Shown here piece after piece: positions 1,270 to 40,309 of a stretch of 63,769 nt of DNA. A program made the position numbers and the translations under genes. The stretch's first letter is position 1; each line of letters begins with the position of its first letter. Under the pieces are notes generated by a model. That model saw nothing but the letters and a program-made list of their open reading frames with translations. It did no database searches and was not told where the DNA came from. Origin of the DNA: Candidatus Omnitrophota bacterium (GTDB lineage Bacteria > Omnitrophota > Gorgyraeia > Zapsychrales > Zapsychraceae); assembly GCA_030637405.1 (NCBI GenBank), contig DAOWGP010000040.1, forward strand, positions 1 to 63,769, read 5' to 3'.

Positions 1270-2292
1270 TTAAAGCGCTGAGGAAAGTAATTTAGAAAGG
1301 TACTGAAGATTATTAAGGTTTCCTTCAATCTTTCCTTCTTCTCTTTTGGTGTGAAGACTCAAGACCCCGAAAACGCGGTCCTTATCTTGCAAAGGCATGA
1401 CCAGAGCTTCTTTGATTTCCGGCCGTTTTAAGAACTGTTTAATGCGGTTATCCCCTTCTGTTCCATGGATAACAAAAGCGGCATTTTCCTGGGCGGCAAC
1501 ACCAGCTACCCCCTCACCCATTTTGACCTTTACCCCATGAACTTTTTGCGGATCAAGCCCGCGCGAAGCCTTGATCGTTAATTCCTCTTCGTCAGGATCC
1601 TTGACCATGATCGACCCGCATTCGGCATTGGTCATTTTTAACGCGACATCCAAAAGCGTTGCTAAAAGCCCATCAAGGTAAACTGCGGAATAAATCTCTT
1701 GAGCCGTTTCACTAAACTCTTCTGATAAAACCCCCATATCCGATTTCATCTTGTTAAGCTCCCGCTTCCTTAAGCTCAACTCAACATTATCACGGATAAT
1801 CTCAGAAAGCAGGTCCAGGATCGAATTGACCATGATGTTGGAAACAACGCGGATCCCGCCAAGTTCATTAAAAAGCTCCCTCTTGTCGCATCCATATCCT
1901 TCTGCAATTTCTTCATATTCAGAGGCCGAAAGACGCTTGTTCAAGATAACCGGTCCCATGACCATGTAGGCAATGATTTGATCATCTTCGATCTTAATGG
2001 GAATCGCAAAACTGTTAAGGCCATAACGATTGTATGATTCAAAGAATGCCCCGTATTGATCAAACTGCTTATCCACATTGATTGAATCATCCGCGAGATC
2101 AAACTTCAGGGACTGGTCAGTCAAAAGACGCCCGCCATAGCGCCCCCTCTCGGGAGGCAGAATGGTGCGGCCTTCGGCATCGATCACAAAAATATTGACG
2201 CGCAGGACATCGATAAAATGGGAAAGCATATCCCACCATTTCTCCTTATCGATCACTTCGCGCGCTAATTTTTTTAATTCTTCCGGTTTCAT
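1270..2292 (-). CDS. PocR-like sensory domain + GAF domain protein without a recognisable output domain
   Basis: 340 aa. The N-terminal part (VNIFVIDAEGRTILPPERG...) is PocR-like. The C-terminal part is GAF-like (AECGSIMVKD...MGEGVAGVAAQENAAFVIHG). Its start overlaps the stop of the upstream response regulator (2289-2292). Confidence 0.5.
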   Translation of the reverse strand: MKPEELKKLAREVIDKEKWWDMLSHFIDVLRVNIFVIDAEGRTILPPERGRYGGRLLTDQSLKFDLADDSINVDKQFDQYGAFFESYNRYGLNSFAIPIKIEDDQIIAYMVMGPVILNKRLSASEYEEIAEGYGCDKRELFNELGGIRVVSNIMVNSILDLLSEIIRDNVELSLRKRELNKMKSDMGVLSEEFSETAQEIYSAVYLDGLLATLLDVALKMTNAECGSIMVKDPDEEELTIKASRGLDPQKVHGVKVKMGEGVAGVAAQENAAFVIHGTEGDNRIKQFLKRPEIKEALVMPLQDKDRVFGVLSLHTKREEGKIEGNLNNLQYLSKLLSSAL

Positions 2293-3695
2293 TCGTCCCT
2301 CTTATTATCCCCGAAAATATCATACTTCTTCATTTTATTATAAAGCGTTGTCCGGTTGACCCCTAAAACCTCCGCGGCCCTGTTCCGGTTCCAATTGCAG
2401 TCATCAAGAACAGAAATAATGTACTCGCGCTCGGGTTCCTCGACCGCTTTTCTTAGCGTTTTACCGTTATTGTTGTTCAACACCGGATCAGAAATAAATT
2501 TAGAAATATTAGGGATATCCTCCTTGTTAACGATCTCAGTTTTGGCCATAATAACGGCCCCCTCGATCGCATTCTCGAGCTCCCTGACATTTCCTTGCCA
2601 GAAATAATTCTGAAATATATCGACAACCTCGTCTGAAAGCTCGCCAACCTTCTTGCTATTGATCCGGCTGTATTTCTCAAGAAAGTGTCCGGCGATTTGC
2701 TCAATATCCTCCTTGCGTTCCCGCAACGGCGGAGCCTGTATCGCGATAACATTAACCCGGTAATAAAGATCTTCACGGAATTTTCCGGTCGCCACTAAAT
2801 CCGTTAAAGTCTGATTGGTCGCCACAATGATCCGCGCATGCGTCTTTCGCGTCACATTATCCCCCACGCGCTCAAAAACACCATCTTGCAAAACACGAAG
2901 CAGCTTCACCTGAAGGCTTAATGAAAAGGCATCGATTTCATCTAAAAAGACCGTTCCGCCATCGGCATATTCAAAGCGCCCCTCCTTATCCTTGATTGCC
3001 CCGGTAAAAGCCCCTTTGACATGCCCGAAGAGTTCACTTTCCAACAATGTTTCAGAAAGAGCCCCGCAACTGACCTCAACAAACGGCTTCCCCTGACGGG
3101 TCTTATCATTTTCATGAATGGCCCTGGCAATCAGCCCTTTACCCGTACCGCTCTCCCCTGCAATGAGAATGGTCGCATTCGTACTCGCCACAGAATCAAT
3201 CATATGATAAACACTCTGCATTTTCTCACTGGAACCGATCATCGCCCCGTATGCACTTCGACGTTCCCGCGCTAAGAGTTCACGCAAAGTTTCATTTTCC
3301 CTAACGACCCGCTTATTTTCGATCGTCTTTTGTATAATGATCTTGATCTCATTGTCATTAATGGGCTTGGTAACATAATCATAAGCGCCCTTTTTCATGG
3401 CTTCAACCGCCGTCTCGATCGATCCGTATCCGGTGATCATAATAACCTCGGTTTTCGGGTATTCTTTCTTTACGGCCTCTAGAAGATCCATCCCGCTCAT
3501 CTTGGGCAATTTGAAGTCCGTGACAACGATATCAAACTCGTTTTTCGACATAAGCTGCAGGGCTTCCTTCCCTCCCTGGGCCATTTGAACACGGTAACCC
3601 TCAATACGCAGGATCTCATAGAGCGACTCGCGGATCAGAGGTTCATCATCGACGACAAGAATCCTAAAATTTTTATTTCTTTCTTTCAACGACAT
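2289..3695 (-). CDS. Sigma54-dependent response regulator (REC + AAA+ enhancer-binding + Fis-type HTH; NtrC/AtoC/PrsR-like)
   Basis: 468 aa. It has an N-terminal receiver (ILVVDDEPLIRESL...VVTDFKLP), Walker A GESGTGKG and the sigma54-contact loop GAFTGA. The C-terminal HTH reads AAEVLGVNRTTLYNKMKKY. Confidence 0.9.
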   Translation of the reverse strand: MSLKERNKNFRILVVDDEPLIRESLYEILRIEGYRVQMAQGGKEALQLMSKNEFDIVVTDFKLPKMSGMDLLEAVKKEYPKTEVIMITGYGSIETAVEAMKKGAYDYVTKPINDNEIKIIIQKTIENKRVVRENETLRELLARERRSAYGAMIGSSEKMQSVYHMIDSVASTNATILIAGESGTGKGLIARAIHENDKTRQGKPFVEVSCGALSETLLESELFGHVKGAFTGAIKDKEGRFEYADGGTVFLDEIDAFSLSLQVKLLRVLQDGVFERVGDNVTRKTHARIIVATNQTLTDLVATGKFREDLYYRVNVIAIQAPPLRERKEDIEQIAGHFLEKYSRINSKKVGELSDEVVDIFQNYFWQGNVRELENAIEGAVIMAKTEIVNKEDIPNISKFISDPVLNNNNGKTLRKAVEEPEREYIISVLDDCNWNRNRAAEVLGVNRTTLYNKMKKYDIFGDNKRDE

Positions 3696-4984
3696 TATTC
3701 CTTAACCGGTAAATTGATCGTGAAAACGGTTCCATTGCCGGGCTTGCTTTCAACATGGATCTTTCCATCATAGCTTTTAATGATCTCAGCGACAATGGTT
3801 AACCCCAAGCCGCATCCTTTATCCATGTCCTTTGTCGTGAAGAACGGCTCAAAGATCTGCTCCGCCTCTTCTTTTGATATTCCGCGGCCCGTATCACTGA
3901 CAATGATCGTTAAAATATTGTCCGTATACTTTGCCTGGACCGTGATCTTTCCGCCCTCATCTACGGCGTCGGCGGCATTGCGCAGGAGATTGGTCAAAAT
4001 TCCTTCGATCCCCAGGTCTAATATCGACGGAACGCGATCCTGAATCTTTTTCTCAACCTCAATATTTTTATGCGCGATCTCCGCTTTTAAACTTGCTAAA
4101 GCATAATCCAACGCTTCCTTAAAATCAGCCCGCTCTGTGGAAAGCGACTGATTGCGCGTGCACGCCAAAAGGTTCTTGACGATATTGGCCATGCGGTCGA
4201 GCCCGTGCTTTACCTCCAACAGATATCCCCTGACCACATCATCGTGGACATGCTCGAGGCTTAAATTCGTATAGCGCATAACCCCGTCTAAGGGATTGTT
4301 AAATTCATGGGCAATGCCGCCGGCTAATTTACCGAGCGTCGCGAGTTTTTCCTGGATATAGATCTGCTTCTTAAGATACACAGCCTCTTGATCGCTTTGC
4401 CCGAGTTTATCTTTTAAGCTCTGGGCCTCCTTAATGCTTTTCTGAAACTTCTGATAAAGCTGAATGCGCCTATAATTAAGAGCGATCTGACTTGATAAGA
4501 AATCCAGCAGCTGCATTTCATTAGCGTTAAAGTGCAATCCGGACTCTTTATCCGTTATATTGATCACTCCGACAAAATCATCCTTGATCATTAACGGGGC
4601 ACAAATGAACGAAGACGTCCGATATCCTTTTCGCGCCTTGAAATTCGCGAACCGTCCATCTTTGGCGATATCCTCGACAACAATGGGGCGCTTTTCTTCG
4701 GCAACCTTGCCGACAATACCACCTCCCATGCGCTTGACCATCTCCTTTTCTTCGCTACGCTGCATTCCGACTGCAATAGCCAGAACAAGATCGCGGCTAC
4801 CCTCCTTTAAAATAAAAATGGAACCGCGGTTCGCGCCGAACAAAGCCATGATCTTATGCAACGTGATCTCAAAGAGCTTTTCATTACTGTTGACAAAATC
4901 GACAACAGCACAAACATCGTTAATCTTATGAAAAAGATCGGTCTGCGGAATTTCTTCAAAAATAGATTTTTGCGGAATACTCAT
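3695..4984 (-). CDS. Cytoplasmic GAF-domain sensor histidine kinase
   Basis: 429 aa. GAF domain at the N-terminus, H-box GGIAHEFNNPL, and N/G boxes LLRNAADA, DTGRGI and GLGLTIV. No hydrophobic transmembrane segment is visible. It overlaps the regulator start by 1 nt (TAATG). Confidence 0.85.
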   Translation of the reverse strand: MSIPQKSIFEEIPQTDLFHKINDVCAVVDFVNSNEKLFEITLHKIMALFGANRGSIFILKEGSRDLVLAIAVGMQRSEEKEMVKRMGGGIVGKVAEEKRPIVVEDIAKDGRFANFKARKGYRTSSFICAPLMIKDDFVGVINITDKESGLHFNANEMQLLDFLSSQIALNYRRIQLYQKFQKSIKEAQSLKDKLGQSDQEAVYLKKQIYIQEKLATLGKLAGGIAHEFNNPLDGVMRYTNLSLEHVHDDVVRGYLLEVKHGLDRMANIVKNLLACTRNQSLSTERADFKEALDYALASLKAEIAHKNIEVEKKIQDRVPSILDLGIEGILTNLLRNAADAVDEGGKITVQAKYTDNILTIIVSDTGRGISKEEAEQIFEPFFTTKDMDKGCGLGLTIVAEIIKSYDGKIHVESKPGNGTVFTINLPVKE

Positions 4985-4985
4985 C

Positions 4986-5885
4986 TTATTTTAAGTCTGA
5001 AGCCTCAACGCCCTTTCCTCTGAGCTGATGAAAGGCGTCAATAACCTTTTCTAAATAACCATTCAAACGATGCCCGGGATTCCGGTCAATGATCCCCTGG
5101 TATAGCTTGATCGCGATATCGTAATCCTGAAGCTGATAGGCAGAAACAATGTTGATTGTCTTAATGGTCATATCCGCGTTTTCAATCGTCAAATATCCCG
5201 AATCCACGTACTTCTCGATAACAACGCCTAATGTCTCGACCGCCTCAGCCCATCGGTTTTGTTCAAGATAACAATTCGAAAGATAGCGCGTGGCGTTTAA
5301 ACCAACCCGCGTATTATCATGGTCAGAGGCCATTTTTTTATAATAACGCACAGCAACTTCATAAGCCTCCATAGTCCTTTGAAAATCATTCTCGTTCCTG
5401 TAATAATTCGCGATATAAATCGGCACGCGCATCGCCGTATCCGTTTTAGAATACTCGCGGATGATCACATTATAAACTTTGTTGGCCTCGACCCAATTCC
5501 GCTCAAATTCATGAGTCTGACCTATTTTAAACATCGCCTCAGCCGAAAGCTCTTGGTTCTCAGGATGCAGCTTGATAATGTCATTAAAGATCTTGCGCGC
5601 TTGCGCGTAATCCTTTTTAAGCGCGTACACCTCCCCAAGACGAATATGAAGTCCCGGCGTAAGGCGGGAATCAGGATGTTGGCTAATAATCTTTTCATAC
5701 TCCGCGATAACATCCTCAAAAGTTCTATCCGGAATAACAACTGGATCTTTGGCAATATCGATATGCTTTTGATAAAGCTTCCAAGCCTTTCTTTCAACAG
5801 TATAATCCCCCTTGTGGCCCAATACAAACAATACAGCAAACAGCCCAACCAGAATCGAGAGATAAATAACAAGGGCTTTCTTCAT
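4986..5885 (-). CDS. TPR-repeat protein with N-terminal membrane anchor/signal
   Basis: 299 aa. Hydrophobic N-terminus (ALVIYLSILVGLFAVLFVL) followed by repeated TPR-like 34-aa units (A..Y...G..Y..A). ATGA overlap with the upstream gene. Confidence 0.6.
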   Translation of the reverse strand: MKKALVIYLSILVGLFAVLFVLGHKGDYTVERKAWKLYQKHIDIAKDPVVIPDRTFEDVIAEYEKIISQHPDSRLTPGLHIRLGEVYALKKDYAQARKIFNDIIKLHPENQELSAEAMFKIGQTHEFERNWVEANKVYNVIIREYSKTDTAMRVPIYIANYYRNENDFQRTMEAYEVAVRYYKKMASDHDNTRVGLNATRYLSNCYLEQNRWAEAVETLGVVIEKYVDSGYLTIENADMTIKTINIVSAYQLQDYDIAIKLYQGIIDRNPGHRLNGYLEKVIDAFHQLRGKGVEASDLK

Positions 5886-6811: not shown

Positions 6812-6840
6812 ATTCTATCACAAACTCGTAAATGTGTCAA
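6812..6840 (-). promoter_or_regulatory. Sigma70-type promoter candidate for the membrane protein / TPR / kinase / regulator operon
   Basis: The minus strand reads TTGACA (6840-6835), a 17-nt spacer, then TAGAAT (6817-6812). This lies about 55 nt upstream of the ATG at 6754. Confidence 0.45.
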
Positions 6841-6900: not shown

Positions 6901-6937
6901 AAAAAAATAAGGCAGATTATACAGTTCATAATCTACC
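6901..6937 (-). terminator. Rho-independent terminator after the PEP-CTERM gene pair
   Basis: Minus strand GGTAGATTAT-gaactgt-ATAATCTGCC forms a 10-bp stem with one G-U pair. It is followed by TTATTTTTTT. Confidence 0.6.
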
Positions 6938-7023
6938 CTATTATATACACTCTCCCCATAGTATATGTGGTTTTTATATATCCAATAGTTTCTTATTTTG
7001 AATTTTGTAATACGAAACTGCCG

Positions 7024-7302
7024 TTACTTTTTTCGACTTGAAAAATACGTCATCGCGGCTAAACCGCCGCCGATAAGCAACATACTGGCCGGTTCCGGAT
7101 TAACTAACGTCGCAACTTCAGCTCCACCTAATGTAGCATCCGCTGCAGCTCCCCCTAAGAGAGCGATCCCGCCTCCAATACCAGTACTGCCGAAAAGGAA
7201 GCTCGCTAATGAGCTGACGCCGCCTGAACCACATCCATAGACAAAAGGAAGGGCTCCAGCTAGAACAACGAGTTTTAGGAATTTAGAAAAACCTTTTCCC
7301 AT
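7024..7302 (-). CDS. Small Gly-rich PEP-CTERM protein (92 aa) with lipobox-like N-terminal signal
   Basis: The N-terminus is KFLKLVVLAGALPFVYGC. The C-terminus, NPEPASMLLIGGGLAAMTYFSSRKK, has the PEP motif, a hydrophobic helix and a basic tail. RBS GAGAGGAG lies upstream. Confidence 0.85.
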   Translation of the reverse strand: MGKGFSKFLKLVVLAGALPFVYGCGSGGVSSLASFLFGSTGIGGGIALLGGAAADATLGGAEVATLVNPEPASMLLIGGGLAAMTYFSSRKK

Positions 7303-7306
7303 TTTA

Positions 7307-7618
7307 CTACTCCTCTCTTTCTTGATTCTTTACTTGCTTATTATAACGATTTGCTTTCGACTTAAAATACGTCATTACCGCCAAACCACTTCCCAACAGT
7401 AACATGCTGGCAGGCTCAGGCTGACTCAATGTCGCAAGTTCAGTTCCAACACCTAGGCCAGTATCTTTTACAGTGGTTAAAAGGCCGATACCAGTACTTC
7501 CACCGAAAAGGAACCCGAGCAACGCGCCAGTACCAGCGCTTGATCCGCATCCATAGATGAAAGGAAGCGCTCCAGCTAGCGTAATGAGCTTAAGGAATTT
7601 TGAATATTTTTTTTCCAT
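7307..7618 (-). CDS. Small Gly-rich PEP-CTERM protein (103 aa), paralog of 7024-7302
   Basis: The start is moved to the ATG at 7618 (MEKKYSKFLKLITLAGALPFIYGC), which is preceded by AAAGGAGG. The C-terminal part is QPEPASMLLLGSGLAVMTYFKSK plus a 17-aa charged tail. The track ORF start at 7672 would overlap the upstream gene. Confidence 0.85.
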   Translation of the reverse strand: MEKKYSKFLKLITLAGALPFIYGCGSSAGTGALLGFLFGGSTGIGLLTTVKDTGLGVGTELATLSQPEPASMLLLGSGLAVMTYFKSKANRYNKQVKNQEREE

Positions 7619-7640: not shown

Positions 7641-8489
7641 TTATCGCGCGCCTTCACCTGTTGCAACAACACGGAAGGTGCGCATCATGATATCAAAATC
7701 AGCCCAGAAACACATCTTCTTAACATAAAGAAGATCATATCTAAGTTTCTTTTTGACATCTTCAACTGTTTCATCATAACAATGCCAAACCTGAGCTAAT
7801 CCGGTAATCCCCGGCTTAACAGCAAGCCGTTGTTCATAACCAGAAATTTCTTCTTTAAATCTTTCAACAAAGATCGGCCTTTCCGGCCTCGGCCCGATAA
7901 GACTCATCTCCCCCTTGAGAATGTTGATAAACTGAGGAATCTCATCGATATGGGCTTTGCGCAGGAAACCACCAACAAGTGTCAAACGGCTATCATTCTC
8001 TGCCGCCCAAACAGGGCCTGTTTCCTTCTCCGCATCAATTGCCATGGTACGGAATTTATACATTTTAAAAAGTCTTCCCTTCTTCCCGACACGCACTTGA
8101 GAATAGAAAATAGGTCCTTTAGAGGTCAACCTCACCAGCAGTGCCGTAATAAGAAATAATGGTGAGAGAACAATAATCCCGACAATAGACGTAATCATAT
8201 CAAAAATGCGCTTTGCGAAGGCATACGTGCGCCGCATAAAGCTTATGATCATACCTAAGAGACCGCTCGCGAATAAAGCCATTGTTGTAGGCTCAGGAGC
8301 GCGCGCTCTTGGGGCTCTTTGTGCATCGTAAGAAGCCTCTGAATCTTCGGTATCTACACAAAGACGCGAACATTCAACGGATGTAATTGATGAAAATGCC
8401 GCCCAGGCGGTATCCACAAATAACGCGAATACTGTGACGACCGCAACAACGGCTAAAAGGCTCTTTATTCTTTTTCGGATTTTCTTCAT
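7641..8489 (-). CDS. Polyprenyl-phosphate sugar-phosphate transferase (bacterial sugar transferase domain) with N-terminal signal peptide and an embedded PEP-CTERM-like module
   Basis: 282 aa. Residues 1-30 are signal-peptide-like (…FVDTAWA/AF). Residues 65-87, APEPTTMALFASGLLGMIISFMRR, form the PEP-CTERM-like module. The sugar transferase core follows: KRIFDMITSIVGIIVLSPLFLITALLVRLTSKGPIFYSQVRVG ... IGPRPERP ... KPGITGLAQV. Confidence 0.85.
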   Translation of the reverse strand: MKKIRKRIKSLLAVVAVVTVFALFVDTAWAAFSSITSVECSRLCVDTEDSEASYDAQRAPRARAPEPTTMALFASGLLGMIISFMRRTYAFAKRIFDMITSIVGIIVLSPLFLITALLVRLTSKGPIFYSQVRVGKKGRLFKMYKFRTMAIDAEKETGPVWAAENDSRLTLVGGFLRKAHIDEIPQFINILKGEMSLIGPRPERPIFVERFKEEISGYEQRLAVKPGITGLAQVWHCYDETVEDVKKKLRYDLLYVKKMCFWADFDIMMRTFRVVATGEGAR

Positions 8490-8542: not shown

Positions 8543-8558
8543 AGCAAATACCATGCCA
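8543..8558 (-). promoter_or_regulatory. Sigma54 (-24/-12) promoter candidate
   Basis: Minus strand TGGCATGGTATTTGCT fits TGGCAC-N5-TTGCW, with GG and GC at canonical spacing. It lies about 54 nt upstream of the ATG at 8489. A sigma54 enhancer-binding regulator is encoded at 2289-3695. Confidence 0.65.
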
Positions 8559-8787
8559 ACAATAACCCTTTAGTAAAGAATTTTTGTGTGTTATAAATTA
8601 TTGGTAGTGAATATTTTGTGACACGAAAAAATCGAATAGTTAGACATTCCAGGATAGGTATGGACAGACTATACTAAATACCACATTATTCATGTTGACA
8701 TTTTTGAACACATGTTTAAAGGAGTCTACATTATATAGTAGTATTAATTTTTAATACTATACTATGTGGTAGCTAATAAGACTATGT

Positions 8788-9426
8788 TCAGGGGAGATAT
8801 TGATGCAGGTGGGGAACAATCAACCGGCCAAACTTCTTTATACGCTCGCTGGCCTCAGATTCATTCTCATGTTTGACTGTGGAAGAAATCCTTATAAGAG
8901 CGCTGCTGGCAGGACTCCCAAGAAAAGACTTCATGGCAATAAGCCCTTGTTGAATCCAGTAATTTGATGTGAAGGAATCGCCGACTTTGAACCAATAGAC
9001 AAAGATCTGCTCGGTCCTCCCCCTCTCTACCGTCAACCGGTTGACTTCGATTCTTTCATCTTCCGATACCGAAACAAAAGAATCATGAACATTGTTTAGG
9101 ATCGTGGCCCCTCCCCCGGTATAGCATATCTCCGGCGGGTGGGATACTTTCCGGTTGTTCTGGGAGTACACAACAAACAAGTAAACTTCTTCACCTTGTG
9201 TATTCGAATAACGCCGGACAAAAACATTATCCGTTTCAAGAAGGGCTTTATCATCCTTTGAAATCGGTATTTCTTCTGCCGCCCAACCCCCGATCTCCTT
9301 TGGGAAAAAATGAATATTGACACTATCTTCCTGACGGTAAACCTTGAAATAAACCCGCCATGACACAGTGCCGGCAAACACAAAAAGCACAAGAATGAAC
9401 CAATAGCTAAGATCCTTTAACTTCAT
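8788..9426 (-). CDS. EpsI-family exosortase-associated protein
   Basis: 212 aa with one N-terminal TM segment. Motifs include FPKEIGGW...E and VSHPPEICYTGGG, the latter analogous to the EpsI H.P..C..G.G motif. ATGA overlap with the exosortase gene. Confidence 0.7.
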   Translation of the reverse strand: MKLKDLSYWFILVLFVFAGTVSWRVYFKVYRQEDSVNIHFFPKEIGGWAAEEIPISKDDKALLETDNVFVRRYSNTQGEEVYLFVVYSQNNRKVSHPPEICYTGGGATILNNVHDSFVSVSEDERIEVNRLTVERGRTEQIFVYWFKVGDSFTSNYWIQQGLIAMKSFLGSPASSALIRISSTVKHENESEASERIKKFGRLIVPHLHQYLP

Positions 9427-10241
9427 TCCAAGATCCTCCCGGCAACGAACAGTAAAATAAAGGCAAGGGCAAAAACAAGAAAGCCTGAGGCGTCATGAAT
9501 AAACCCGACGGCATATTTAGGCCCCCAAATTTCAGCGATCGAAGAAAGGAAAATGATCCGCGCGACATTAGTTACGATAGCAATGGGAATAGTAATAATA
9601 AAAAGAAGATATTTTCTGACTATGGACGATTTCATCCAGTACGCAAAAATGCTTCCCAAAGCCATCAAAGAGATCAGTGACCTTAATCCACTGCAGACAT
9701 CATCAACGACGATTTGAGCATTGCGCATATGGATCAAGCTGCCTTCGCGCAAAGCCGGGATGCCGGCATTATTTAAAATATCCGTAGCAATTTTTGCCGC
9801 AAAAATCTTCATTTTGAAACTGATATTGGTAATGATCACTAACGGGACGGGAATCATAAAGACTAAAAACAGGACAGGAAAAAGGATTTTCTTGAAAACA
9901 GCAAAACCGTAAAAGAACAAGATCAACCCGACTAACACGATCAACATGGAAAATCCGGAAATAAAATAGACCCGCATCAGCGACGCGAAGATATGCATAA
10001 GCATGCCGGTGATGATCAGGAACATCCCCCATCCTGAACTGATCTTTTTGATCGAAGCGAGATCTTCCCTCTTCTGCCAGACCAGGAACACAACCACAAA
10101 GGGTATAAGAATGCCGTGGCTGTAATAGGAATCCCGCGCGAACCACCTATCCCACATCCAGATAAAAGTCGGAACATAGGTCAAAAGGAAGAGAATGGTT
10201 ATGGAGAACTGCTTAACGTAAGATTTGATAGAAATTTGCAT
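9423..10241 (-). CDS. Exosortase (EpsH/Xrt family), short 272-aa form
   Basis: Polytopic. It carries WDRWFARDSYYSHGILIPFVV, the catalytic-type motif VCSGLRSLISL, and the downstream VTNVARIIFL. Confidence 0.85.
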   Translation of the reverse strand: MQISIKSYVKQFSITILFLLTYVPTFIWMWDRWFARDSYYSHGILIPFVVVFLVWQKREDLASIKKISSGWGMFLIITGMLMHIFASLMRVYFISGFSMLIVLVGLILFFYGFAVFKKILFPVLFLVFMIPVPLVIITNISFKMKIFAAKIATDILNNAGIPALREGSLIHMRNAQIVVDDVCSGLRSLISLMALGSIFAYWMKSSIVRKYLLFIITIPIAIVTNVARIIFLSSIAEIWGPKYAVGFIHDASGFLVFALAFILLFVAGRILE

Positions 10242-10784: not shown

Positions 10785-11933
10785 TCAATCCCTCGCCTTT
10801 TCCCACGTAATGTCCTGCCGCGCCGCAAAAAATCTTAAAAAACCGATCAGCGCGGAGAAATTCAATAAACAAAAAACATACGGGATATAACATACCTTTG
10901 AAACGGTCTTCAGAATACCATATTTTTGATGTCTTGCCAAGCCGCCAATCACCGCCATAATGTAGAACAGTTTCTGCAGGTCAAAAAGCATTTGATACAA
11001 TAGCTCCCCGGTCAGGCTCCAATTGATAAAAAAGAGCGCGACCATAAACAACGGGATCAATACACGCAAAAGCTTATGCGAGAATAACTGAAAAGCGATA
11101 GGGCTTTTCGCGGGATTGAACATCTCCCGAAAGACCCAAAAGATCTGATAATTCCCGAAAAGTGTCCGCGTCTTGCGCCGATGTTCCTCCCTCGAGCTGT
11201 CGGCAACCTCATCGTAGGCAATAGCTGAAGAGTCGAAAACCGCGCGATACCCACTTTGAATAATTTTAAATGGCACAAACATGTCATCAAGAACGATATC
11301 TTCCGGTATTTCCGTAAATAATTCCCTGCGGATCGCGTAGATCGCTCCGGTGGCCCCCAGCATCGAATGGACATGGCTCTCCGCGCGGCGAATGAACTTT
11401 TCATAATTCCAATAAAGGTTAATTCCCCGAGCAGTCGCTCCGTCTTTCTTGGAAAACATCAATTCGCCACTGACACACCCAACCTGAGAATCATTGAAAT
11501 TGCTGACCAGAACTTTAACCGCGTCCCTTTCAAAAATCTGCCGGGCATCGGTAAAGACAATGATCTCATTCTTGGCTTTCTTGACCAGATCATTGAGCGT
11601 TGCCATCTTTCCCCGTCGCTGAGCATCCTCGATCAAATGAACGCGGGGATCGATAAACTGCCGTATCATGTCATTGGTTTGGTCGCTCGAGCCGTCGGAC
11701 CCGATGAGGATCTCGATCTTTTCAGCCGGGTAATCTAAGGACAAGAGGTTCTTGATCTTGCTTTTAATGACATCTTCTTCGTTCCAAATGGAAAGGATGA
11801 CCGATACCGCCGGTTCACATTCCCCTTTTTCTATCGGGCGGCGCGGAATGTAACTGAGGCAGGCCACAACGACGGGATAACCGAAGTAACAGTAACAGAT
11901 AAGGAAAATGAGAGTCCAAAAAACAAAAGTCAT
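10785..11933 (-). CDS. Membrane-integrated family 2 glycosyltransferase (synthase-like topology)
   Basis: 382 aa. N-terminal TM, VSVILSIWNEE...GSDGSSDQT and TDARQ motifs, then C-terminal TM helices after EEHRRKTRTLFGNYQ. Confidence 0.75.
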   Translation of the reverse strand: MTFVFWTLIFLICYCYFGYPVVVACLSYIPRRPIEKGECEPAVSVILSIWNEEDVIKSKIKNLLSLDYPAEKIEILIGSDGSSDQTNDMIRQFIDPRVHLIEDAQRRGKMATLNDLVKKAKNEIIVFTDARQIFERDAVKVLVSNFNDSQVGCVSGELMFSKKDGATARGINLYWNYEKFIRRAESHVHSMLGATGAIYAIRRELFTEIPEDIVLDDMFVPFKIIQSGYRAVFDSSAIAYDEVADSSREEHRRKTRTLFGNYQIFWVFREMFNPAKSPIAFQLFSHKLLRVLIPLFMVALFFINWSLTGELLYQMLFDLQKLFYIMAVIGGLARHQKYGILKTVSKVCYIPYVFCLLNFSALIGFLRFFAARQDITWEKARD

Positions 11934-11970
11934 ATGTAATCTTATACTGGTTATGATACAAGATATAGTA

Positions 11971-12235
11971 GATTGAAATTGTTTGAAATTAGTGGAAATT
12001 CTTTGAAATTAATTGTGAGCATTTGAAAAAATTATCGTGACAGTGGTTTTTAAAACCATGCCATCCTCAAATAACATTTTTTCAGAGATCTCAACTAATC
12101 CCAAAAAATTTCTACCACTTTCTACTCATTTCAACAAATTTCAACCAATTACTACCAATCCCCATTCTCCCCCAAACATCTCGTCCCACAACTTACAACC
12201 CAACCAAATTTCTATCAATTTCCATCAATTTCAAC
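11971..12235. repeat. Gene-less element with the same GAAATT-type inverted repeat arrays (MITE-like derivative of cassette A)
   Basis: Left arm 11983-12010 is TTGAAATTAGTGGAAATTCTTTGAAATT. The reverse complement of 12207-12234 is TTGAAATTGATGGAAATTGATAGAAATT, a 23/28 match. There is an extra internal array at 12107-12150. No credible ORF lies between the arms. Confidence 0.55.
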
Positions 12236-12269
12236 TTCTTATATCGTGTGTCTTGCATCTTGTGTCTTT

Positions 12270-13046
12270 TTATATTTTCAACAATGTCTTGCGTATCCAA
12301 TCATACACCCCTTCGCCGAAAAATCTTTTAATAGCACTTTTGCTTTTACCAATCAGACGTTCATGAGCCGGAGTGTCGCCGGTAACAGCCTGTTTAAAAC
12401 GTTTAATCGGCCAGCTGGCTTTTACAGCCACGCGGCTTAAGCACTCTAAATTCAAAGCCCTCGGCCGGTCCGAAATGAACACGTATTTATAGCCGCAATC
12501 GTAAGCCATGCGAATCACTTTATTGTTGCAAAAACCCCTGGGCATTGAAAAAGCATCGACATTGATATTGAGATTACGCTCGAGATATCTTTTTGAAGCG
12601 CGCAATTCCTCTTCGACCTGCGAATCCAGAAGATTCGTGAGGATCTCGTGGCTGAATCCGTGAGAACCGATAACCATTCCTGCCTCATGCAGTGCCCGCA
12701 GCTCATCCCATCCCATATAACCGGGTTCACCGATGCGCTTAGCAATAATAAAGAAATGAGCGGGAAACCCGCATTTCTTCAAGACCGGAAGAGCCTGATC
12801 ATAATTATTCATCTCACCATCGTCAAAAGTCAATATGACCTGGCATGCGCCCGGAGCCGGCGCCGCCTCATTAAGAATATCAATTTTATATTGCTCTGCT
12901 TCCAGCCATTCCATTTGCTTCTGAAAGTTCACCGTCGCGACATCATAGAGATCCGCCCCCGCCTCCCTCTCTTTGGGAAGGGCCGTCCACTCAGAAACAA
13001 TACCGTGATACATAAGGACTAATGGTTGTAAAGATAGTTTGGACAT
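12270..13046 (-). CDS. Polysaccharide deacetylase (CE4 / NodB-type)
   Basis: 258 aa with the motifs ILTFDDGEMNNY and GSHGFSHE. Confidence 0.8.
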   Translation of the reverse strand: MSKLSLQPLVLMYHGIVSEWTALPKEREAGADLYDVATVNFQKQMEWLEAEQYKIDILNEAAPAPGACQVILTFDDGEMNNYDQALPVLKKCGFPAHFFIIAKRIGEPGYMGWDELRALHEAGMVIGSHGFSHEILTNLLDSQVEEELRASKRYLERNLNINVDAFSMPRGFCNNKVIRMAYDCGYKYVFISDRPRALNLECLSRVAVKASWPIKRFKQAVTGDTPAHERLIGKSKSAIKRFFGEGVYDWIRKTLLKI

Positions 13047-13566: not shown

Positions 13567-14196
13567 CTACTTCTCCACAACCGCCTTTTTCAGGCCCTTC
13601 ACTGTTGCCTTAAGCATATACAAGCCCTGTAGTTTCTTCCGCGCGGCATCATCGCCCGGGTCATTCTGAACTCTTTTCTCATATTCGCGGATACGCCCTT
13701 CGATGCGCTCAAGCTGCTGCCGGAACTGCTCCGGCGTCTTTTTGATCCCCTTAAAAGCATCGCCTTCAGACATGCGGTCTATGATATCTGCTTCCCGGAC
13801 TGTTTTTCTCATCGATGAATTCCAGCGGCGCTGGTTCTGGAGCAAGGCGCCCCGCTCTTGCGTTTTAATATTGTATTCCTCCGGGTCACTGAAGATTATC
13901 TCCGGTAGGACCTTCTCCTTGATCTGCTCAACGATCACAGGTTTCACCGGCAACCGCGCTGATAACGGCTTCCTTTTCTCCGGTATTTGGATCTTAAGCT
14001 GCCGATCAACCGAAATATTGATCGCCCGGAATGTGATAAAAAATACAAACACCGAGGCGATAATGGCATACAACGCATATCGATAATAATTATACTCCCT
14101 CACGTGCCTGGGAACTGACGCGCTTGCGCGCTTGCGCCGTTTTTTCGCCCTTGCGATCCTGGGCTCTTTTGCTCTTGTGCTCCTACGCTGTATCAT
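13567..14196 (-). CDS. Hypothetical bitopic protein (basic N-terminus, one TM, about 140-aa extracytoplasmic part)
   Basis: The start is moved to the ATG at 14196 (MIQRRSTRAKEPR…). It sits 1 nt after the upstream stop and is preceded by GGAGGG. TM segment: YALYAIIASVFVFFITF. Confidence 0.5.
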   Translation of the reverse strand: MIQRRSTRAKEPRIARAKKRRKRASASVPRHVREYNYYRYALYAIIASVFVFFITFRAINISVDRQLKIQIPEKRKPLSARLPVKPVIVEQIKEKVLPEIIFSDPEEYNIKTQERGALLQNQRRWNSSMRKTVREADIIDRMSEGDAFKGIKKTPEQFRQQLERIEGRIREYEKRVQNDPGDDAARKKLQGLYMLKATVKGLKKAVVEK

Positions 14197-14197
14197 G

Positions 14198-15325
14198 CTA
14201 TATTTCCCTCCACGAACTCGGATTCTTCGTGTAGCCGGAAACTCCGCCTCCCACCAAACCCTCAAATCCCGGAGGAACGACCCCTCTTTTTCTCATGTCC
14301 GCGTAATTAAAAGTTTTTGTCGACCAGACTTCACGGATAATGATCCCTTCATTGGCAACCACGCTGCCATTGGTCACCGACGTGTCGTGCATCTCATCAA
14401 AATAGGCGCTCCCATGAGTATAAATCATGCCATTGTGAATGCTGGGCAAGGCCGCGGTCTCAAAGTAATCCGACCAGGCAATAATATTCAACTGTGAATC
14501 TTTTTGCGCCAGGCCCGCCTGATTGTGCGTGACCGTGCCCGTCGCAATAACGGTCAGGCTTTGTCCTTTTTCAAGCGCCCCGGTAAACTGAATGATCGCA
14601 TTCCCCTCGCCTTCCCGCCGGCCTTCAATGTAAATGATCTTCTTGCCTTCAAGCGATTCATCCGGCGTGATCGTATAAGTGTCATTGCCCTGGATATAAA
14701 CCACTTCATCTTCCGGATAGCTGGCAATAAGATTACGGTAAAAAGCAATAAAGTCGGAGAACTCATCAGGAGTCCCATTACCGTCAGCATCGGGATAAGT
14801 TATCGAGACAAGCGCATCATTCACACCCTCCTGGACATCCTCAAAAAAGGTAAGCGGATACGTGGCCGTATTGATCACGTTCCCTCCGAGGCGTAATTTA
14901 TCATTGATCATCAGCGACGACTTACGCCCCTCGATGAACACGCTTCCCTTCGTTGACATAGTGCTCTCAAAGATCGTCGATAGAGCGGGATATTTGATCT
15001 GTATGCTCCGCCGGCTCCCCCCGGTGGTACCGGTCGACGTCACAAGCCGGTATTTCCGGTTGGAATCATCCTTGAGAATCTCGATCATCCCGTTTTCTTC
15101 ATTAATCATTTTTGATCCTGTTTCGTTAAGGATTTCCGGGTCCGCAAGGAATTGATTGATTCCTGCTTCGGCAAGCCAGAAAGCCGCCGTTGTATCCTGA
15201 TGCCGGCGCGCGTCATTGAGTTCGGTAAAATTGAAAAGCGCCACGCTTGACGACAATGTTACCAGAACGAACAAAGCCATGTAAACGGCAATTAAAACGG
15301 CCCCTTTATTGTTTGATAGGTTCAT
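14198..15325 (-). CDS. GspK/PilX-like minor pseudopilin (no Glu5-type prepilin motif)
   Basis: 375 aa. The N-terminus, NNKGAVLIAVYMALFVLVTLSS…AAFWLAEAGINQ, resembles the PilX_N/GspK N-terminal region. Confidence 0.55.
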   Translation of the reverse strand: MNLSNNKGAVLIAVYMALFVLVTLSSSVALFNFTELNDARRHQDTTAAFWLAEAGINQFLADPEILNETGSKMINEENGMIEILKDDSNRKYRLVTSTGTTGGSRRSIQIKYPALSTIFESTMSTKGSVFIEGRKSSLMINDKLRLGGNVINTATYPLTFFEDVQEGVNDALVSITYPDADGNGTPDEFSDFIAFYRNLIASYPEDEVVYIQGNDTYTITPDESLEGKKIIYIEGRREGEGNAIIQFTGALEKGQSLTVIATGTVTHNQAGLAQKDSQLNIIAWSDYFETAALPSIHNGMIYTHGSAYFDEMHDTSVTNGSVVANEGIIIREVWSTKTFNYADMRKRGVVPPGFEGLVGGGVSGYTKNPSSWREI

Positions 15326-15347
15326 AACGTGTCTTTAGCTAGTTAAC

Positions 15348-15909
15348 AAAAATGCCAAATGAAAAATATCAAATGATACATCGCGCTTCGCGCAAGTACT
15401 CCTCGCAATAATCCCGAGCAAAGCGAGGGGAAAATAAATGTCAAATTCCAAAATCTAAATAATTAAGAACCCTTCTGGGTTTTCTTAATGATACTGCTCA
15501 AAATCAATAATATTTCATGGCACTCATTAATCAACCAATCTAATTCCTTTTTATCGGATATATTCTGAATCGGAACAACAGCTTTCAATAACTTTAACCA
15601 ATGCCGAGATTCCCTTGCCTCTCTCCTGGATATTCCAACCTTATTAATAAAATCCTTCTTCGTTAATGCCCCATCTGCTGCCTCAAGATTAGATCCCATT
15701 GAACCACTTGACCTAATTAATTGCCGACTATATTCTCTGGCTGATATACTTTTAGGCAATTTCTCTAGAAATTTAACTGTTCTTGCGGAAAACTTAAATA
15801 TCCGATCATATATATCAAACTTCTTTTTTTCGATCATTTTTCAACTATCCAATTTGTCATTTATCATTTGGTTTTCATTTGACATTTGTCATTTGCTCAT
15901 TTGTCATTA
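15348..15909. repeat. Four-helix-bundle gene cassette D bracketed by inverted CAAATG-type periodic repeat arrays (with a nested small palindrome)
   Basis: Left array 15348-15379 plus 15431-15458; right array 15851-15909. 15354-15378 matches the reverse complement of 15861-15883 in two blocks (12 and 9 nt). There is a nested CCTCGC…GCGAGG hairpin at about 15400-15430. Confidence 0.55.
15463..15837 (-). CDS. Four-helix-bundle protein (23S-IVS/Avd family)
   Basis: 124 aa. Full-length paralog of 13114-13452. Confidence 0.8.
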   Translation of the reverse strand: MIEKKKFDIYDRIFKFSARTVKFLEKLPKSISAREYSRQLIRSSGSMGSNLEAADGALTKKDFINKVGISRREARESRHWLKLLKAVVPIQNISDKKELDWLINECHEILLILSSIIKKTQKGS

Positions 15910-15921
15910 TTAACAATGTTT

Positions 15922-16419
15922 TTAGCGGAAGAACGGCGTTTTTGAACGTAAAGCAACCCTTTCCTTTAATGCCGCTTTTGCCATCTGCCCATCCGACATC
16001 CGCTTGCTTGCTGTAATATCGATAATCACGACATCTTTCAAATATTGAAAAGAAAGATCGGAAATGTATTGTGCCATGATCCGTTTTTTAAAACGGTTCC
16101 GCCGGATGATCCTGCCGGCATCGCGCCCTTTATTCCTCCAAATATACGAAACAGGGCCGGTCAACGGGATATAAAAATGGACGGCGCTCCCGTCGGGGCC
16201 CTCAATGACCCGCACATTTTCGGCCGCCCGCAGTTCATTGACCATCCCTAAAAGAGCCCTACGCGCTTCCCGTCTTGCCGCGACCGAATCGTTATAATGA
16301 ACCCAGGCCTTGTTCCCGACGATATAGGTTGAATAGATCCCCGCGAAGACAACCGTAGAAATGAGAGCCGTAACCAGCGCCTCGACAAGAGTAAATGCTT
16401 TTTTATTATGTGTCCTCAT
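15922..16419 (-). CDS. GspJ/PilW-like minor pseudopilin with prepilin-type N-terminal methylation motif
   Basis: The start is moved to the ATG at 16419 (ATGA overlap with the upstream stop). The N-terminus reads MRTHNKKAFTLVEALVTALISTVVFAG, followed by ARREARRALLGMVNELRAA. Confidence 0.65.
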   Translation of the reverse strand: MRTHNKKAFTLVEALVTALISTVVFAGIYSTYIVGNKAWVHYNDSVAARREARRALLGMVNELRAAENVRVIEGPDGSAVHFYIPLTGPVSYIWRNKGRDAGRIIRRNRFKKRIMAQYISDLSFQYLKDVVIIDITASKRMSDGQMAKAALKERVALRSKTPFFR

Positions 16420-16802
16420 TTTGCGACCTTTGTTATGAACGTGACGCCATGGCTTCTCAATTTCCGCGTCCAATTCACCGTTACCTGCATATCGAGTAAA
16501 TTGCTGCTTGGTTCCGAAAAGATAATATCGATGGTTTCACCGGGAAGCGTGTTCAATCCTTGGTCCACGGCCCACTCTTCCCAATTCATGACCAGAATAC
16601 TGCCGATCGAGTCGCTTCTTTGAGCTTCTTCCAGAACGTACTCGGCATGCGATGTCGCGACGGTCATATCCCATGCCAGCTGCGATGAGATCATCGAAGT
16701 CACATACAATAAAAGCACCCCGCCGATCGCGACAGCCAAAATAAACACGGCAATAAGCAGCTCAACAAAAGTAAATCCTTTATTATTGCGTTTAAGAGAC
16801 AT
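16416..16802 (-). CDS. GspI/PilV-like minor pseudopilin with prepilin-type N-terminal cleavage/methylation motif
   Basis: 128 aa. The N-terminus reads KRNNKGFTFVELLIAVFILAVAIGGVLL. Confidence 0.75.
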   Translation of the reverse strand: MSLKRNNKGFTFVELLIAVFILAVAIGGVLLLYVTSMISSQLAWDMTVATSHAEYVLEEAQRSDSIGSILVMNWEEWAVDQGLNTLPGETIDIIFSEPSSNLLDMQVTVNWTRKLRSHGVTFITKVAK

Positions 16803-17142: not shown

Positions 17143-20100
17143 TTATTTTTCTCCTAAACCTGCAAACCAATTGCGTATATCCTGCCAGAGTTTTTTAACC
17201 CCGTCCTGAAAGGCTTCCAAGATATCCTTTTCCTCTTCTTCGATGACCTCTTCAGTAGCAAGAAGCCCTTCAACATCCTCGGGCTCTGTCTGTGCGTCCA
17301 GAAGCTTCTTCCTGAGATCCGCGTATGTTTCAACTTCCAGATCCGTCATCTCTCCTTCTATGAGTTCCTCAATTTTCACTTCGTCTTCTTTTGTCAATAC
17401 CTGAAGGACTTCTCCTCCATCAGATACCGATAATGTCGTATCTATCAATCCTTCACTACCAGTGGTTGTTCTGCTAGTGGTGGCTGTTCTGGTACTGGTC
17501 GTCGTTCTGGTGCTGGCTGTACTCGTTACACTAGTAGAATCATTTGATTTGGTTTTGGTCTTGCCGGAATTGCTTCGGCTGGAACCCGAGCTTCCACCGC
17601 CGCCGGAACTGGAGCTGCTTTTATTCGATTTTTCTTTCGTATGGCTGGATCCCGTAGCCGCTGTTTCTTCGACACTTGCAGGCTCTACGATCGCCGTATT
17701 TAAAACAGTTGGCTCTACGGTTGTTCCGGATGATTGTTTTGTTGACGTTTCTTCCTCCTGCGGTTCAGGGGTCACATGACATGCATTGTTATACCAATAG
17801 TGACCGTTCTTCTCGCAGTCTGGTTTGTTTTTACAAAGCGAAATACTATCGGCGCATGTCAATTCCGGTTCCGGTTCTACCTGAGGTTCTATGACCGGTT
17901 CGGGACCGGCATTACAGGTATTGTCATACCAGAAATATCTATTATTTTCACAGTCCGGTTTATTCTTGCAATACAGAATATTTTCCGCGCATGTCGGTTC
18001 CGGTTCAGGGGCAAGATGGCACGTATCATCATACCAGTAGCGCCCAGCGATGATACAGTCCGTCGAGGTTAAACAATACTGGATCCCGTCGGCACATGTC
18101 GGCTCCGGTTCCGGTACCGGTTCCGGCTCGATACAATTCGGCCACTCCGCGCTGGGTTTCGCGCAGGGATTTCCGCAGGAATCTGTACCACCTGTAAGCG
18201 GCGTCTGTCCGCATTCGATCAACGGAAGATCGCACCATGTCGGAACGCAGGCCTCAGACTCCGGTTCAGGATCCGGTACTACGGGCTCCTGAACAAGGTT
18301 GCATGTGTTGTTGTACCAATAATAACCATTCTCAGCGCAATCGCCCGAGGTTAAACAATATAAGATATCATCAGCACAGGTCGATGACGGTTCACGTTGT
18401 GCGTGGCAGGCATTGTCGTACCAGAAAAAAGCCCGTCCTAGACATTCAACTTCAGTTAAACAGTACTGAATACCGTCAATACACGTCGGTTCAGACTCGG
18501 GGTCCACATTGCATATCCCGTCATACCAGAAATACTCATTCTCGGTACAATCCGTTTCTGTCTCGCAATATTGAATATCTGCCGCGCACGTCGGATCCTC
18601 TCCAACCGTATCATATTCAATGGCTCCTATGTCCCAGACTTCCCCGCGGTTTTTCTTCTTATAATCTAGGCTTGATTTACCAACTAACGTAAGGCCTTTC
18701 CTTACTGCGGGGCTAGTTGATTTTAAACTAGCGTTAAATTCATTTCCCGTGAAATATTTAATAGCCCCATCCAAAAGTTCAGGATCCTCGCATATGGAAT
18801 GTTCCTTGCCATTACAATCTGTCGCGAAATTTTTAGTATTCCAAATAACGGAATAATCATCCTCCATATCAATATCTCCGCAAGGACCATCGCCATTTCC
18901 TGTTATCCCTCCGGGCCAATAAAGCGCTGATTTGTCATAACCGTCATTAAACTCCGTTCCGCCTAAATAGATATTGTTTCTTGAAATAATTCTCTCAGAT
19001 CCATCGCATGTACTTCCGCCCGAAGTTGTCATCGTATCGCCATTGCTCGTTATCGTCGAATTATAGATCTCGATTTGATATCCCGTACGGAGCCTCATCG
19101 CAAGAGCGCTCCCGGCAGCCCGGCAATTATTAAAAGTCGATGTTTTCCATGTAATAGGATTATCAGCGAAATACGCACAATTCCCGATTAAAAGAGAATT
19201 TTCAATGAGGGCGTCTGATGCTATTTTGACCTGATTACCGGCATTTCCTTCAAATAGCGAACGTTTGATCGTGATCGATCCGTTTCCACTGTGATATAAC
19301 AGGTCAAGACCGTCAGATACGTTATGACTGATATCACACTCGTTAAAGATCCAGTCTCCATTCGTTTTCTCTGTTCCCAATCCATCACCGTAACCGCCTT
19401 GGTCCTGACTATAACAGTTATAAGGCTGCTTTCCAGGATAGGTTTCCCCGCATCCGTTAAATTGAATATCCGTTCGATTGAAGAGTATTGTTCCGGAATT
19501 AGACGATGTTGTTGATCCAAGATCACCGTCCCATCCAACAAAAGAATTGGCAACAATTTTTGAATCCTCGATGGTCCAGTCTTTGATCCGGGCCGCCCAC
19601 ACCCCTTTAAAAGCCATACCATGAATATTAACGTTTTTAATTAAAACACTCTCGCTATCTTTCCCCGTTAATCCTATAACTCCCCATTCTCCAAAAGGAG
19701 GATAATCTCTATTACATGGATTTGGTCCATGCTCTTGACAATCCGAATGATCCGTCACTTCCAAACATTGAACTTCCACATTATCGCTGCCATTCAAATT
19801 CAATATCCTGGTGACCCTTTCTGTACCCCATAATTGAGGCGGGTTAGCACATCCGGTATCCCAACCCTTCCCCAATATACGGGTAGGATGTGCCGGGTCC
19901 GGTCCGGAAGGAATAGAACGCATATAACACTCGTAGGCTGCCGCGGGATAACACTTGCTGGTATTAGACGCGCCATCACCGATCATATATTCCGCATTGT
20001 CTGAACCGTCAATAATGAGAGTATCGCCGCCAACCATTACGGTAGAATGGCCGATCGGCGAAATAGCCCAAAATGGATGCGAGAAAGCACAATTCTGACC

Positions 20101-24026: not shown

Positions 24027-24071
24027 TATTTCATACCGGTTATCATTTAATGAGTTTCTAAGACGTATCGG

Positions 24072-35029: not shown

Positions 35030-35048
35030 ACTGCCCCTTTCATTTCAC

Positions 35049-40305: not shown

Positions 40306-40309
40306 AAAT

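Follow-up and report, generated by a model that had tools for sequence, protein, structure and literature searches.

Why would a bacterium keep, side by side, two proteins of about 100 residues that carry a sorting signal at each end and almost nothing in between? The question is raised by two adjoining genes, A and B, on a contig of 63,769 nucleotides (nt) from a Candidatus Omnitrophota bacterium (GenBank assembly GCA_030637405.1, contig DAOWGP010000040.1), the whole of which, 63.8 kb, was analysed and is called the window below. Omnitrophota are a widespread phylum known nearly only from metagenome-derived genomes. A first-pass annotation of the letters alone had drawn attention to two tandem open reading frames (ORFs) of 92 and 103 amino acids (aa) at 7024-7618, and both are present there as complete minus-strand ORFs. 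On balance, we favour the reading that A and B are dedicated, minimal exosortase substrates with two signals. They would hold on to a lipid by the N-terminus, be cleaved and transferred at the C-terminal end, and act as a flexible tether or anchor for a polysaccharide layer. They belong to a family of passenger-less, dual-signal, putative exosortase substrates at the core of a gene cassette, a family undescribed in the curated collections and the literature searched: neither A, B nor any of 45 close relatives matches a curated Pfam or NCBIfam family beyond the PEP-CTERM models, and the searched literature held no paper joining PEP-CTERM with Omnitrophica and no account of a mini-protein with both lipobox and PEP-CTERM.

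Two small proteins with a signal at each end

The two genes and their C-terminal signals lie as follows.

7024-7302, minus strand: small protein A, 92 aa; lipobox signal peptide, Gly-rich linker, PEP-CTERM
7307-7618, minus strand: small protein B, 103 aa; lipobox signal peptide, Gly-rich linker, PEP-CTERM, basic tail plus about 9 extra residues
7027-7098, minus strand: PEP-CTERM segment of A
7355-7420, minus strand: PEP-CTERM segment of B

Protein A starts with MGKGFSKFLKLVVLAGALPFVYGC and ends with NPEPASMLLIGGGLAAMTYFSSRKK; protein B starts with MEKKYSKFLKLITLAGALPFIYGC and ends with QPEPASMLLLGSGLAVMTYFKSKANRYNKQVKNQEREE. The two are 61% identical, their genes are separated by 4 nt, and a strong Shine-Dalgarno sequence stands before either gene. 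They share the start M-x-K-x-x-SKFLKL...LAGALPF(V/I)YGC and the end (N/Q)PEPASMLL.G.GLA.MTYF, which is followed by basic residues. The lipobox Cys is residue 24 in both (codons 7231-7233 in A and 7547-7549 in B), and the PEP motif follows 44 residues later in A and 42 in B. The earlier observation that both proteins join a lipobox-like Cys to a PEP-CTERM signal is thus upheld, and the combination is kept family-wide. In the hidden Markov model (HMM) check that had been proposed, A scores above both PEP-CTERM cut-offs (PF07589, 23.4 bits against 20.7; TIGR02595, 17.5 against 16), and 44 of the 45 close relatives match both models. Within the window, PEP-CTERM-like motifs are confined to three genes: A, B and that of the adjoining transferase. 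At the other end, A (VYGC) and B (IYGC) conform to a PROSITE-type lipobox rule (of the PS51257 type: Cys at 15-35, uncharged h-region, n-region containing K/R) and deviate from the strict pattern [LVI][ASTVI][GAS]C through the Tyr at -2. A six-frame scan of the entire window with the PROSITE-type rule returned A, B and one internal-start artefact only.

How the two genes are joined also accounts for most of a peculiarity of B, which had been credited with an unusual charged extension of 17 aa. Eighteen residues follow its YF; the first 9 align with the usual basic tail of the family, so that the tail is indeed longer than those of relatives, but by only about 9 residues. The final codons of B, GAA AGA GAG GAG (followed by TAG; 7303-7324), are themselves the Shine-Dalgarno sequence of gene A, 7 nt 5' of its ATG. 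The extension is thus mostly explained by overlap with the ribosome-binding site of A, and A and B are probably translationally coupled. A longer version of B, from a GTG at 7672, was rejected: it overlaps the transferase gene, and relatives begin at MEKKYSK. As a side observation, one low-depth contig (about 7x, compared with about 50x) in a DNA run from the source cold seep, X1, rejoins A and B differently within 7042-7551, with junctions from 7095 to 7551, from 7104 to 7266 and from 7310 back to 7042. Related strains that differ in copy number might account for these junctions, as might recombination between the two paralogues in tandem.

We next consider the family. A first search found 45 close relatives, all of 88-119 aa, in metagenome-assembled genomes (MAGs) of Omnitrophica/Omnitrophota and in metagenomes, often as two copies per contig; L18, Y22, G23, C24 and L37 are invariant in their alignment. 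A profile search of 1.84 billion representatives, clustered at 50% identity, returned 387 clusters at E<=1e-3, of which 107 reached E<=1e-10. Among the best 150 matches, a 410-aa protein that matches through its PEP-CTERM alone is the sole exception; all others are 68-149 aa long and align end to end. A cluster look-up showed the distant members to be singletons on short metagenome contigs. Full-length relatives of equal size rule out that A and B are gene fragments or remnants of larger PEP-CTERM genes, an outcome that the annotation had named as fatal to its own proposal.

Gene A is covered over 6989-7298 by a contig of 323 nt from a hydrothermal-vent metatranscriptome, at 95-99% identity. 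Ten of the 12 listed substitutions are synonymous third-position changes, and gene A is therefore under purifying selection. The contig also suggests that gene A is transcribed; it is a single, short sequence from a sample unrelated to the source, and DNA carry-over is possible. A look for RNA runs from the cold-seep samples of origin turned up none.

Residue statistics were computed on 188 family members. The lipobox Cys is invariant and, in nearly all members, the sole Cys beyond the signal peptide; Gly occupies position -1 in 185 members, Pro position -5 in 152 and Leu position -6 in 153. The Tyr at -2, rightly called non-canonical by the annotation, is the majority state (106/188), while Ala, Thr or Ser stands there in 51. 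Canonical lipoboxes occur among the relatives (LLTGC, FLAGC, LLAGC, VLTGC, LISGC, and FITAC in an Omnitrophota locus, L002), and those with ITAC, LTGC, LAGC or ISGC fit the strict pattern. The relatives that have Ala, Thr or Ser in place of this Tyr show that the motif is meant as a true lipobox. The PROSITE-type rule is passed by 46 of 47 and by 125 of 147 sequences, the failures being mostly PCLYGC variants. After the Cys come [G/N/Q]-G-G-G-G and, about 12 residues later, an LFG-type motif (FLFG, SLFG) in 147/188. PEP is invariant (188/188), with a stretch of about 16 hydrophobic residues between it and the K/R at the end; the flavour of the family is [LIV]-A-T-[ILV]-H-N-PEP-A-[ST]-M-L-L-L-G-[SG]-G...A-M-x-Y-F-K.

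Between Cys and PEP lie a median of 47 residues (range 31-93), made up of 30.6% Gly, 13.9% Ser, 10% Ala, 10% Leu, 6% Thr and 0.5% Lys plus Arg. AlphaFold, run with the family alignment, gave a predicted template-modelling score (pTM) of 0.29, with one helix for the signal peptide, another, of low confidence, at residues 30-39 (predicted local distance difference test, pLDDT, about 55), disorder at 40-61 (pLDDT <50) and a C-terminal membrane helix. Together with the lack of any domain family match to the middle, this bears out the prediction that little globular remains once both signals are taken away. In the distant homologue of locus L001 the middle is plain Gly/Ala/Thr/Pro filler, which argues that this stretch is a linker and not a folded or zipper element.

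The cassette, its promoter and its surroundings

The genes around A and B all lie on the minus strand and form a compact cassette of about 12 genes, given here in the order of transcription; B and A stand between the transferase and the 290-aa membrane protein.

12270-13046, minus strand: polysaccharide deacetylase, conserved cassette head
10785-11933, minus strand: PgaC-like family-2 glycosyltransferase, conserved cassette head
9423-10241, minus strand: exosortase (EpsH family); PF09721 237 bits, TIGR02602 183 bits
8788-9426, minus strand: EpsI (DUF3485), exosortase-associated protein, by HMM
7641-8489, minus strand: polyprenyl glycosylphosphotransferase, first gene of the operon; PF02397 225 bits, TIGR03025 303 bits, PF07589 23.6 bits
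5882-6754, minus strand: polytopic membrane protein of 290 aa, conserved and always directly downstream of the small genes
4986-5885, minus strand: TPR protein, regulatory tail of the cassette
3695-4984, minus strand: GAF histidine kinase, regulatory tail of the cassette
2289-3695, minus strand: sigma-54-dependent response regulator; 408 bits to PrsR TIGR02915 (cut-off 502.6)
1270-2292, minus strand: PocR-GAF protein, regulatory tail of the cassette

This order is repeated in five other loci (L001, L002, L009, L011 and L015) and occurs in variant form in L014, L025, L026 and L028; the deacetylase-glycosyltransferase head (10785-13046) has equal order in L009, L011 and L026. L001 and L002 were obtained, among the matches listed, by scanning genome contigs with the pattern PEPAS[MLV]LL[LVI]G; the same pattern gave no useful full-length locus among the matches listed for metagenome contigs. 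The small gene, single or duplicated, is found in 9 of 10 cassettes, downstream of exosortase and EpsI and usually after the transferase, and for two of these nine cassettes the 290-aa neighbour gave an independent route. Upstream of A and B, exosortase and EpsI stand at 1.2-2.6 kb here, and within about 2.5 kb in every locus with enough flank. Some loci have one to five ordinary PEP-CTERM proteins between transferase and small gene; given these variable insertions, the small protein is the constant substrate and the larger PEP-CTERM proteins the variable ones. As an observation in its own right, L001 (contig CAYZIY010000011.1) comes from a MAG labelled 'Planctomycetales', and the cassette recurs there with an insertion of five ordinary PEP-CTERM proteins 5' of the small lipoprotein: either the family reaches beyond Omnitrophota or the bin is mislabelled.

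The exosortase contains the motifs CSGLRS, NVARI and FIHD, which hold the Cys, Arg and His residues proposed for these enzymes (bioRxiv 10.1101/2023.06.07.544157), and it scores under the cut-offs of the XrtA (185 against 208), XrtD and XrtW models. It is presumed to be the enzyme that processes A and B.

The regulatory elements, again in the order of transcription, are the following.

8691-8714, minus strand: palindrome CATGTGTT-N8-AACATG, common to ten loci
8652-8671, minus strand: TGTC repeats, common to ten loci
8590-8605, minus strand: IHF-like CAA-N4-TTA, common to ten loci
8590-8714, minus strand: conserved upstream region comprising the above, from an alignment of ten loci of different Omnitrophota
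8543-8558, minus strand: sigma-54 (-24/-12) promoter TGGCATGGTATTTGCT; the ATG of the transferase gene lies 54 nt downstream
6906-6942, minus strand: intrinsic-terminator-like hairpin, 16-bp stem and U run; -38.9 kcal/mol, z = -5.46
6812-6840, minus strand: sigma-70-like promoter of the 290-aa membrane protein gene

The element at 8543-8558 is the sole match with one mismatch to TGGCAC-N5-TTGCW in the window, and all of the 11 loci have TGGCAY-N5-TTGCT once, at the equivalent place. L014 lacks a transferase at that place, and its sigma-54 element stands directly 5' of the small-gene pair. Sigma-54 dependence of PEP-CTERM genes is known for XrtA systems (PMC1569441, PMC9850573). The response regulator of the cassette is of the NtrC type, and its score to PrsR, the 'PEP-CTERM-box' regulator, stays under the cut-off of that model. 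The region at 8590-8714 is likely to be the enhancer of the sigma-54 promoter. Promoter, hairpin after A and separate sigma-70-like promoter together delimit a unit that consists of the sigma-54 promoter, transferase, B, A and the terminator.

The transferase at the head of this unit has a PEP-CTERM signal of its own. Its N-terminus comprises a cleavable-looking signal peptide (…TAWA|), about 35 variable residues and an internal PEP-CTERM at residues 64-87 (R-A-PEP-TTMALFGSG…SFVRR), all of them ahead of the catalytic domain. The layout is kept in six loci, the window included; the homologues lie at L001 5347-6222, L002 8071-8925, L009 4819-5670, L011 4283-5131 and L015 3228-4076. This arrangement, a cytoplasmic enzyme with an N-terminal sorting signal, suggests that the transferase may be docked to, or trimmed by, the exosortase. 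A search with its N-terminal 97 residues gave no match at E<=1e-3, and we found no description of a sugar transferase bearing a signal peptide and PEP-CTERM.

The 290-aa membrane protein has at least 102 homologues (44-80% identity) with invariant E43, H71, Y128, H130 and D272, and its AlphaFold model reaches a pLDDT of 86.6 and a pTM of 0.83. Neither Pfam nor NCBIfam yields a family for it, GPDPase_memb being touched weakly by 2 of 40 members, and it matches no PDB fold at E<=1e-3, the best being yeast PNS1 (E 0.019, TM 0.46).

The remainder of the window, more than 50 kb, is taken up by a Wzx/Wzy-type polysaccharide cluster, and several features were noted there.

13567-16473, minus strand: prepilin-like ORFs 5' of the cassette, with …KKAFTLVEALV… at 15922-16473 and a 375-aa ORF at 14198-15325
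17143-20271, minus strand: 1042-aa secreted-looking protein, no Pfam match, highly acidic C-terminus
22593-26005, minus strand: Dlt-like module with an amino-acid adenylation enzyme (passes TIGR01733; DltA-like) and an MBOAT protein (DltB-like)
24072-24326, minus strand: 84-aa carrier-protein-like ORF of that module, containing GVIDSFGFLELL
33626-36452 and 38917-40353, minus strand: three paralogous PaaK/F390-synthetase-like adenylating ligases within the polysaccharide cluster, adjoining a 2-hydroxyacid dehydrogenase and a Glu/Leu/Phe/Val-type amino-acid dehydrogenase
44563-46569, minus strand: 668-aa fusion of a family-2 glycosyltransferase and a polysaccharide deacetylase

Prepilin-like ORFs, with an N_methyl match, occur again in L025 (1-1922), and pseudopilins may be part of the conserved neighbourhood. 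The gene content of the Dlt-like module suggests that it could esterify a polymer with aminoacyl groups, adding free amino groups to it.

What the small proteins may do

From the two signals and the cassette we infer the following course of events. The cassette's own kinase and enhancer-binding regulator would switch on the sigma-54 promoter of the transferase-B-A operon, and the A and B precursors would be exported by Sec. Cys24 would be modified with diacylglyceryl and the signal peptide removed, leaving the new N-terminus lipid-anchored, while the PEP-CTERM helix would keep the C-terminal end in the inner membrane. Exosortase and EpsI would then cut at the PEP motif and pass the new C-terminus to an acceptor. 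The product would be a lipopeptide of about 45 residues, Gly/Ser-rich, free of Lys and Arg and intrinsically disordered, which could serve as a flexible tether that fastens the cassette polysaccharide, or another exosortase acceptor, to the membrane. The genomic context, with a co-transcribed priming transferase and adjoining exosortase and EpsI, fits an anchor or acceptor role, and the annotation's idea of an acceptor, primer or anchor peptide is compatible with these findings.

Several points weigh against this scheme. Firstly, L028 is an otherwise complete cassette without the small gene and L027 is the downstream half of the cassette alone, so that the small protein is not indispensable. 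Secondly, both signals depart somewhat from the norm: B falls marginally, by less than 1 bit, under both PEP-CTERM cut-offs (PF07589, 20.1 against 20.7; TIGR02595, 15.3 against 16), and Tyr at -2 is rare among studied lipoproteins. Thirdly, there is no Lgt, LspA or Lol gene within the window, the one part of the genome analysed. The conserved LGSLFG/GFLFG motif (147/188) stands in a hydrophobic, Gly-rich segment that might lie in the membrane. Lastly, we know of no system in which the exosortase acceptor is known, and a tether to polysaccharide is for that reason an analogy.

A more specific chemistry can be formulated, which we regard as rather unlikely: the exosortase would link the C-terminus of the lipopeptide by an amide bond to an amino group of the polymer, or the lipopeptide would be lipidated at both ends. 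Candidate amino groups for the former would be those of de-N-acetylated sugars (adjacent deacetylases) or of aminoacyl esters (the Dlt-like module). Because the priming transferase bears the same PEP-CTERM handle, a single exosortase would bring enzyme, glycan and peptide together. If this were true, the acceptor chemistry of a bacterial exosortase would be defined for the first time, and capsules would be seen to be fastened to cells in a new manner.

The sugar might instead be attached to side chains. In this explanation, which is close to the annotation's primer or acceptor and which we consider unlikely, A and B would be glycan carriers akin to a proteoglycan core: a PglL/Wzy_C-type ligase would O-glycosylate the lipid-anchored peptide on Ser/Thr with an undecaprenyl-linked glycan begun by the co-transcribed transferase, and the exosortase would merely free the C-terminus. 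The mature part has 14% Ser and 6% Thr, the small gene is co-transcribed with the priming transferase, and glycosylation has been proposed for Ser/Thr-rich PEP-CTERM proteins (bioRxiv 10.1101/2023.06.07.544157), all of which count for it. A possible ligase is at hand in the Wzy_C protein of the window, which among the NCBIfam models matches TIGR03097 alone (exosortase-A-associated putative O-glycosylation ligase), but its score of 59.7 is far under the cut-off of 188, and it may simply be the cluster's Wzy polymerase. Moreover, no Ser/Thr position is conserved between the LFG and pre-PEP motifs, and L014 has the small pair without an adjoining transferase.

It is quite improbable that neither signal is cut and that the proteins stay in the membrane as two-helix hairpins, with an uncleaved signal anchor and an intact PEP-CTERM helix, as an inner-membrane subunit, as a decoy or regulator in the exosortase substrate site, or as a scaffold for the exosortase together with the PEP-CTERM-bearing transferase. 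Both ends do have a hydrophobic helix with basic flanks on the cytoplasmic side, and the transferase has a like PEP-CTERM helix, the cleavage of which would be of no obvious use. Without signal peptidase II, however, the invariant Cys with its Gly at -1, where the h-region ends, and the canonical lipoboxes of relatives are hard to explain, and the PEP motif and its flanks are conserved as in cleaved substrates.

Very improbable, in our view, is a glycine-zipper outer-membrane lipoprotein of the OsmB/SlyB/YMGG kind, in which GALLGFLFGG would form an oligomerising helix that stabilises the envelope and the PEP-CTERM would be a sorting aid. B has G31, G35, G39 and G43 in register (G-x3-G-x3-G), the LFG-type motif follows the Cys in most members and AlphaFold places its short helix at 30-39. 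Such spacing is expected by chance, however, in a sequence of 31% Gly, the helix is of low confidence, none of the 45 members matches a glycine-zipper family, even at E<=1, and distant members (L001) have Gly/Ser/Thr/Pro filler in place of the segment. Chance ORFs or remnants of larger PEP-CTERM genes, which low complexity and small size might suggest, can be set aside almost entirely in view of the hundreds of full-length relatives of the same size, the synonymous-biased divergence in the transcript, the strong ribosome-binding sites and the conserved operon position.

If A and B are indeed dedicated exosortase substrates, their main value is practical. Exosortases were predicted in 2006, and their products are hard to analyse, since the typical substrate is large, heterogeneous and probably glycosylated. 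The family described here would be a natural minimal substrate, with about 45 residues once processed, no fold, a predicted N-terminal lipid and a gene beside that of the exosortase. It would be a tractable model for asking whether exosortases are transpeptidases, and onto which acceptor, and it adds a conserved envelope component to Omnitrophota.

Comparison with known systems

The closest likeness is to PEP-CTERM/exosortase substrates as described by Haft et al. in 2006 (PMC1569441) and as exemplified by the floc protein PepA (PMC9850573). Shared with these are the signal peptide, the PEP motif with transmembrane helix and basic cluster, the polysaccharide locus with exosortase and EpsI, the sigma-54 promoter and a PrsR-like regulator. 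Ordinary PEP-CTERM substrates, however, are 200-1000 aa long, contain a passenger region behind a signal peptide of the ordinary kind, and vary between genomes, whereas members of the A/B family have about 100 aa, no passenger and a lipobox, and are a fixed part of the cassette. They fall into no PEP-CTERM subfamily that has been curated. The logic of a sigma-54 promoter before PEP-CTERM genes is that of the XrtA/Prs system, but all its models stay under their cut-offs here (XrtA 185 against 208, PrsR 408 against 502.6, PrsK 95 against 300, PrsT 27 against 312), and the TPR protein of the cassette is without a lipobox.

Among small lipoproteins, OsmB, SlyB/Pcp and YMGG are alike in having a lipobox, a short Gly-rich hydrophobic segment and fewer than 160 aa, but show no HMM similarity to A or B, lack a C-terminal sorting signal and have no link to exosortases. 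Braun's lipoprotein, Lpp, is a tiny lipoprotein with a lipid-anchored N-terminus and a C-terminus joined by transpeptidases to a cell-envelope polymer; it forms a helical trimer and is attached through its C-terminal Lys to peptidoglycan by L,D-transpeptidases. The A/B lipopeptide would resemble it by functional analogy only, with no kinship in sequence or structure, being predicted to be disordered, without Lys and putatively joined by an exosortase.

Replacement of a C-terminal signal by a lipid or glycolipid anchor is the theme of PGF-CTERM/archaeosortase A, GlyGly-CTERM/rhombosortase and the C-terminal domain of T9SS (type IX secretion) substrates with PorU (bioRxiv 10.1101/2023.06.07.544157; PMC7468200). 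Other enzymes and signals are at work there, and the substrates are large, folded proteins, none of which, in the cited papers, joins an N-terminal lipobox to a passenger-less peptide. If the exosortase likewise swaps in a lipid or glycolipid anchor, the A/B peptide would be anchored at both ends.

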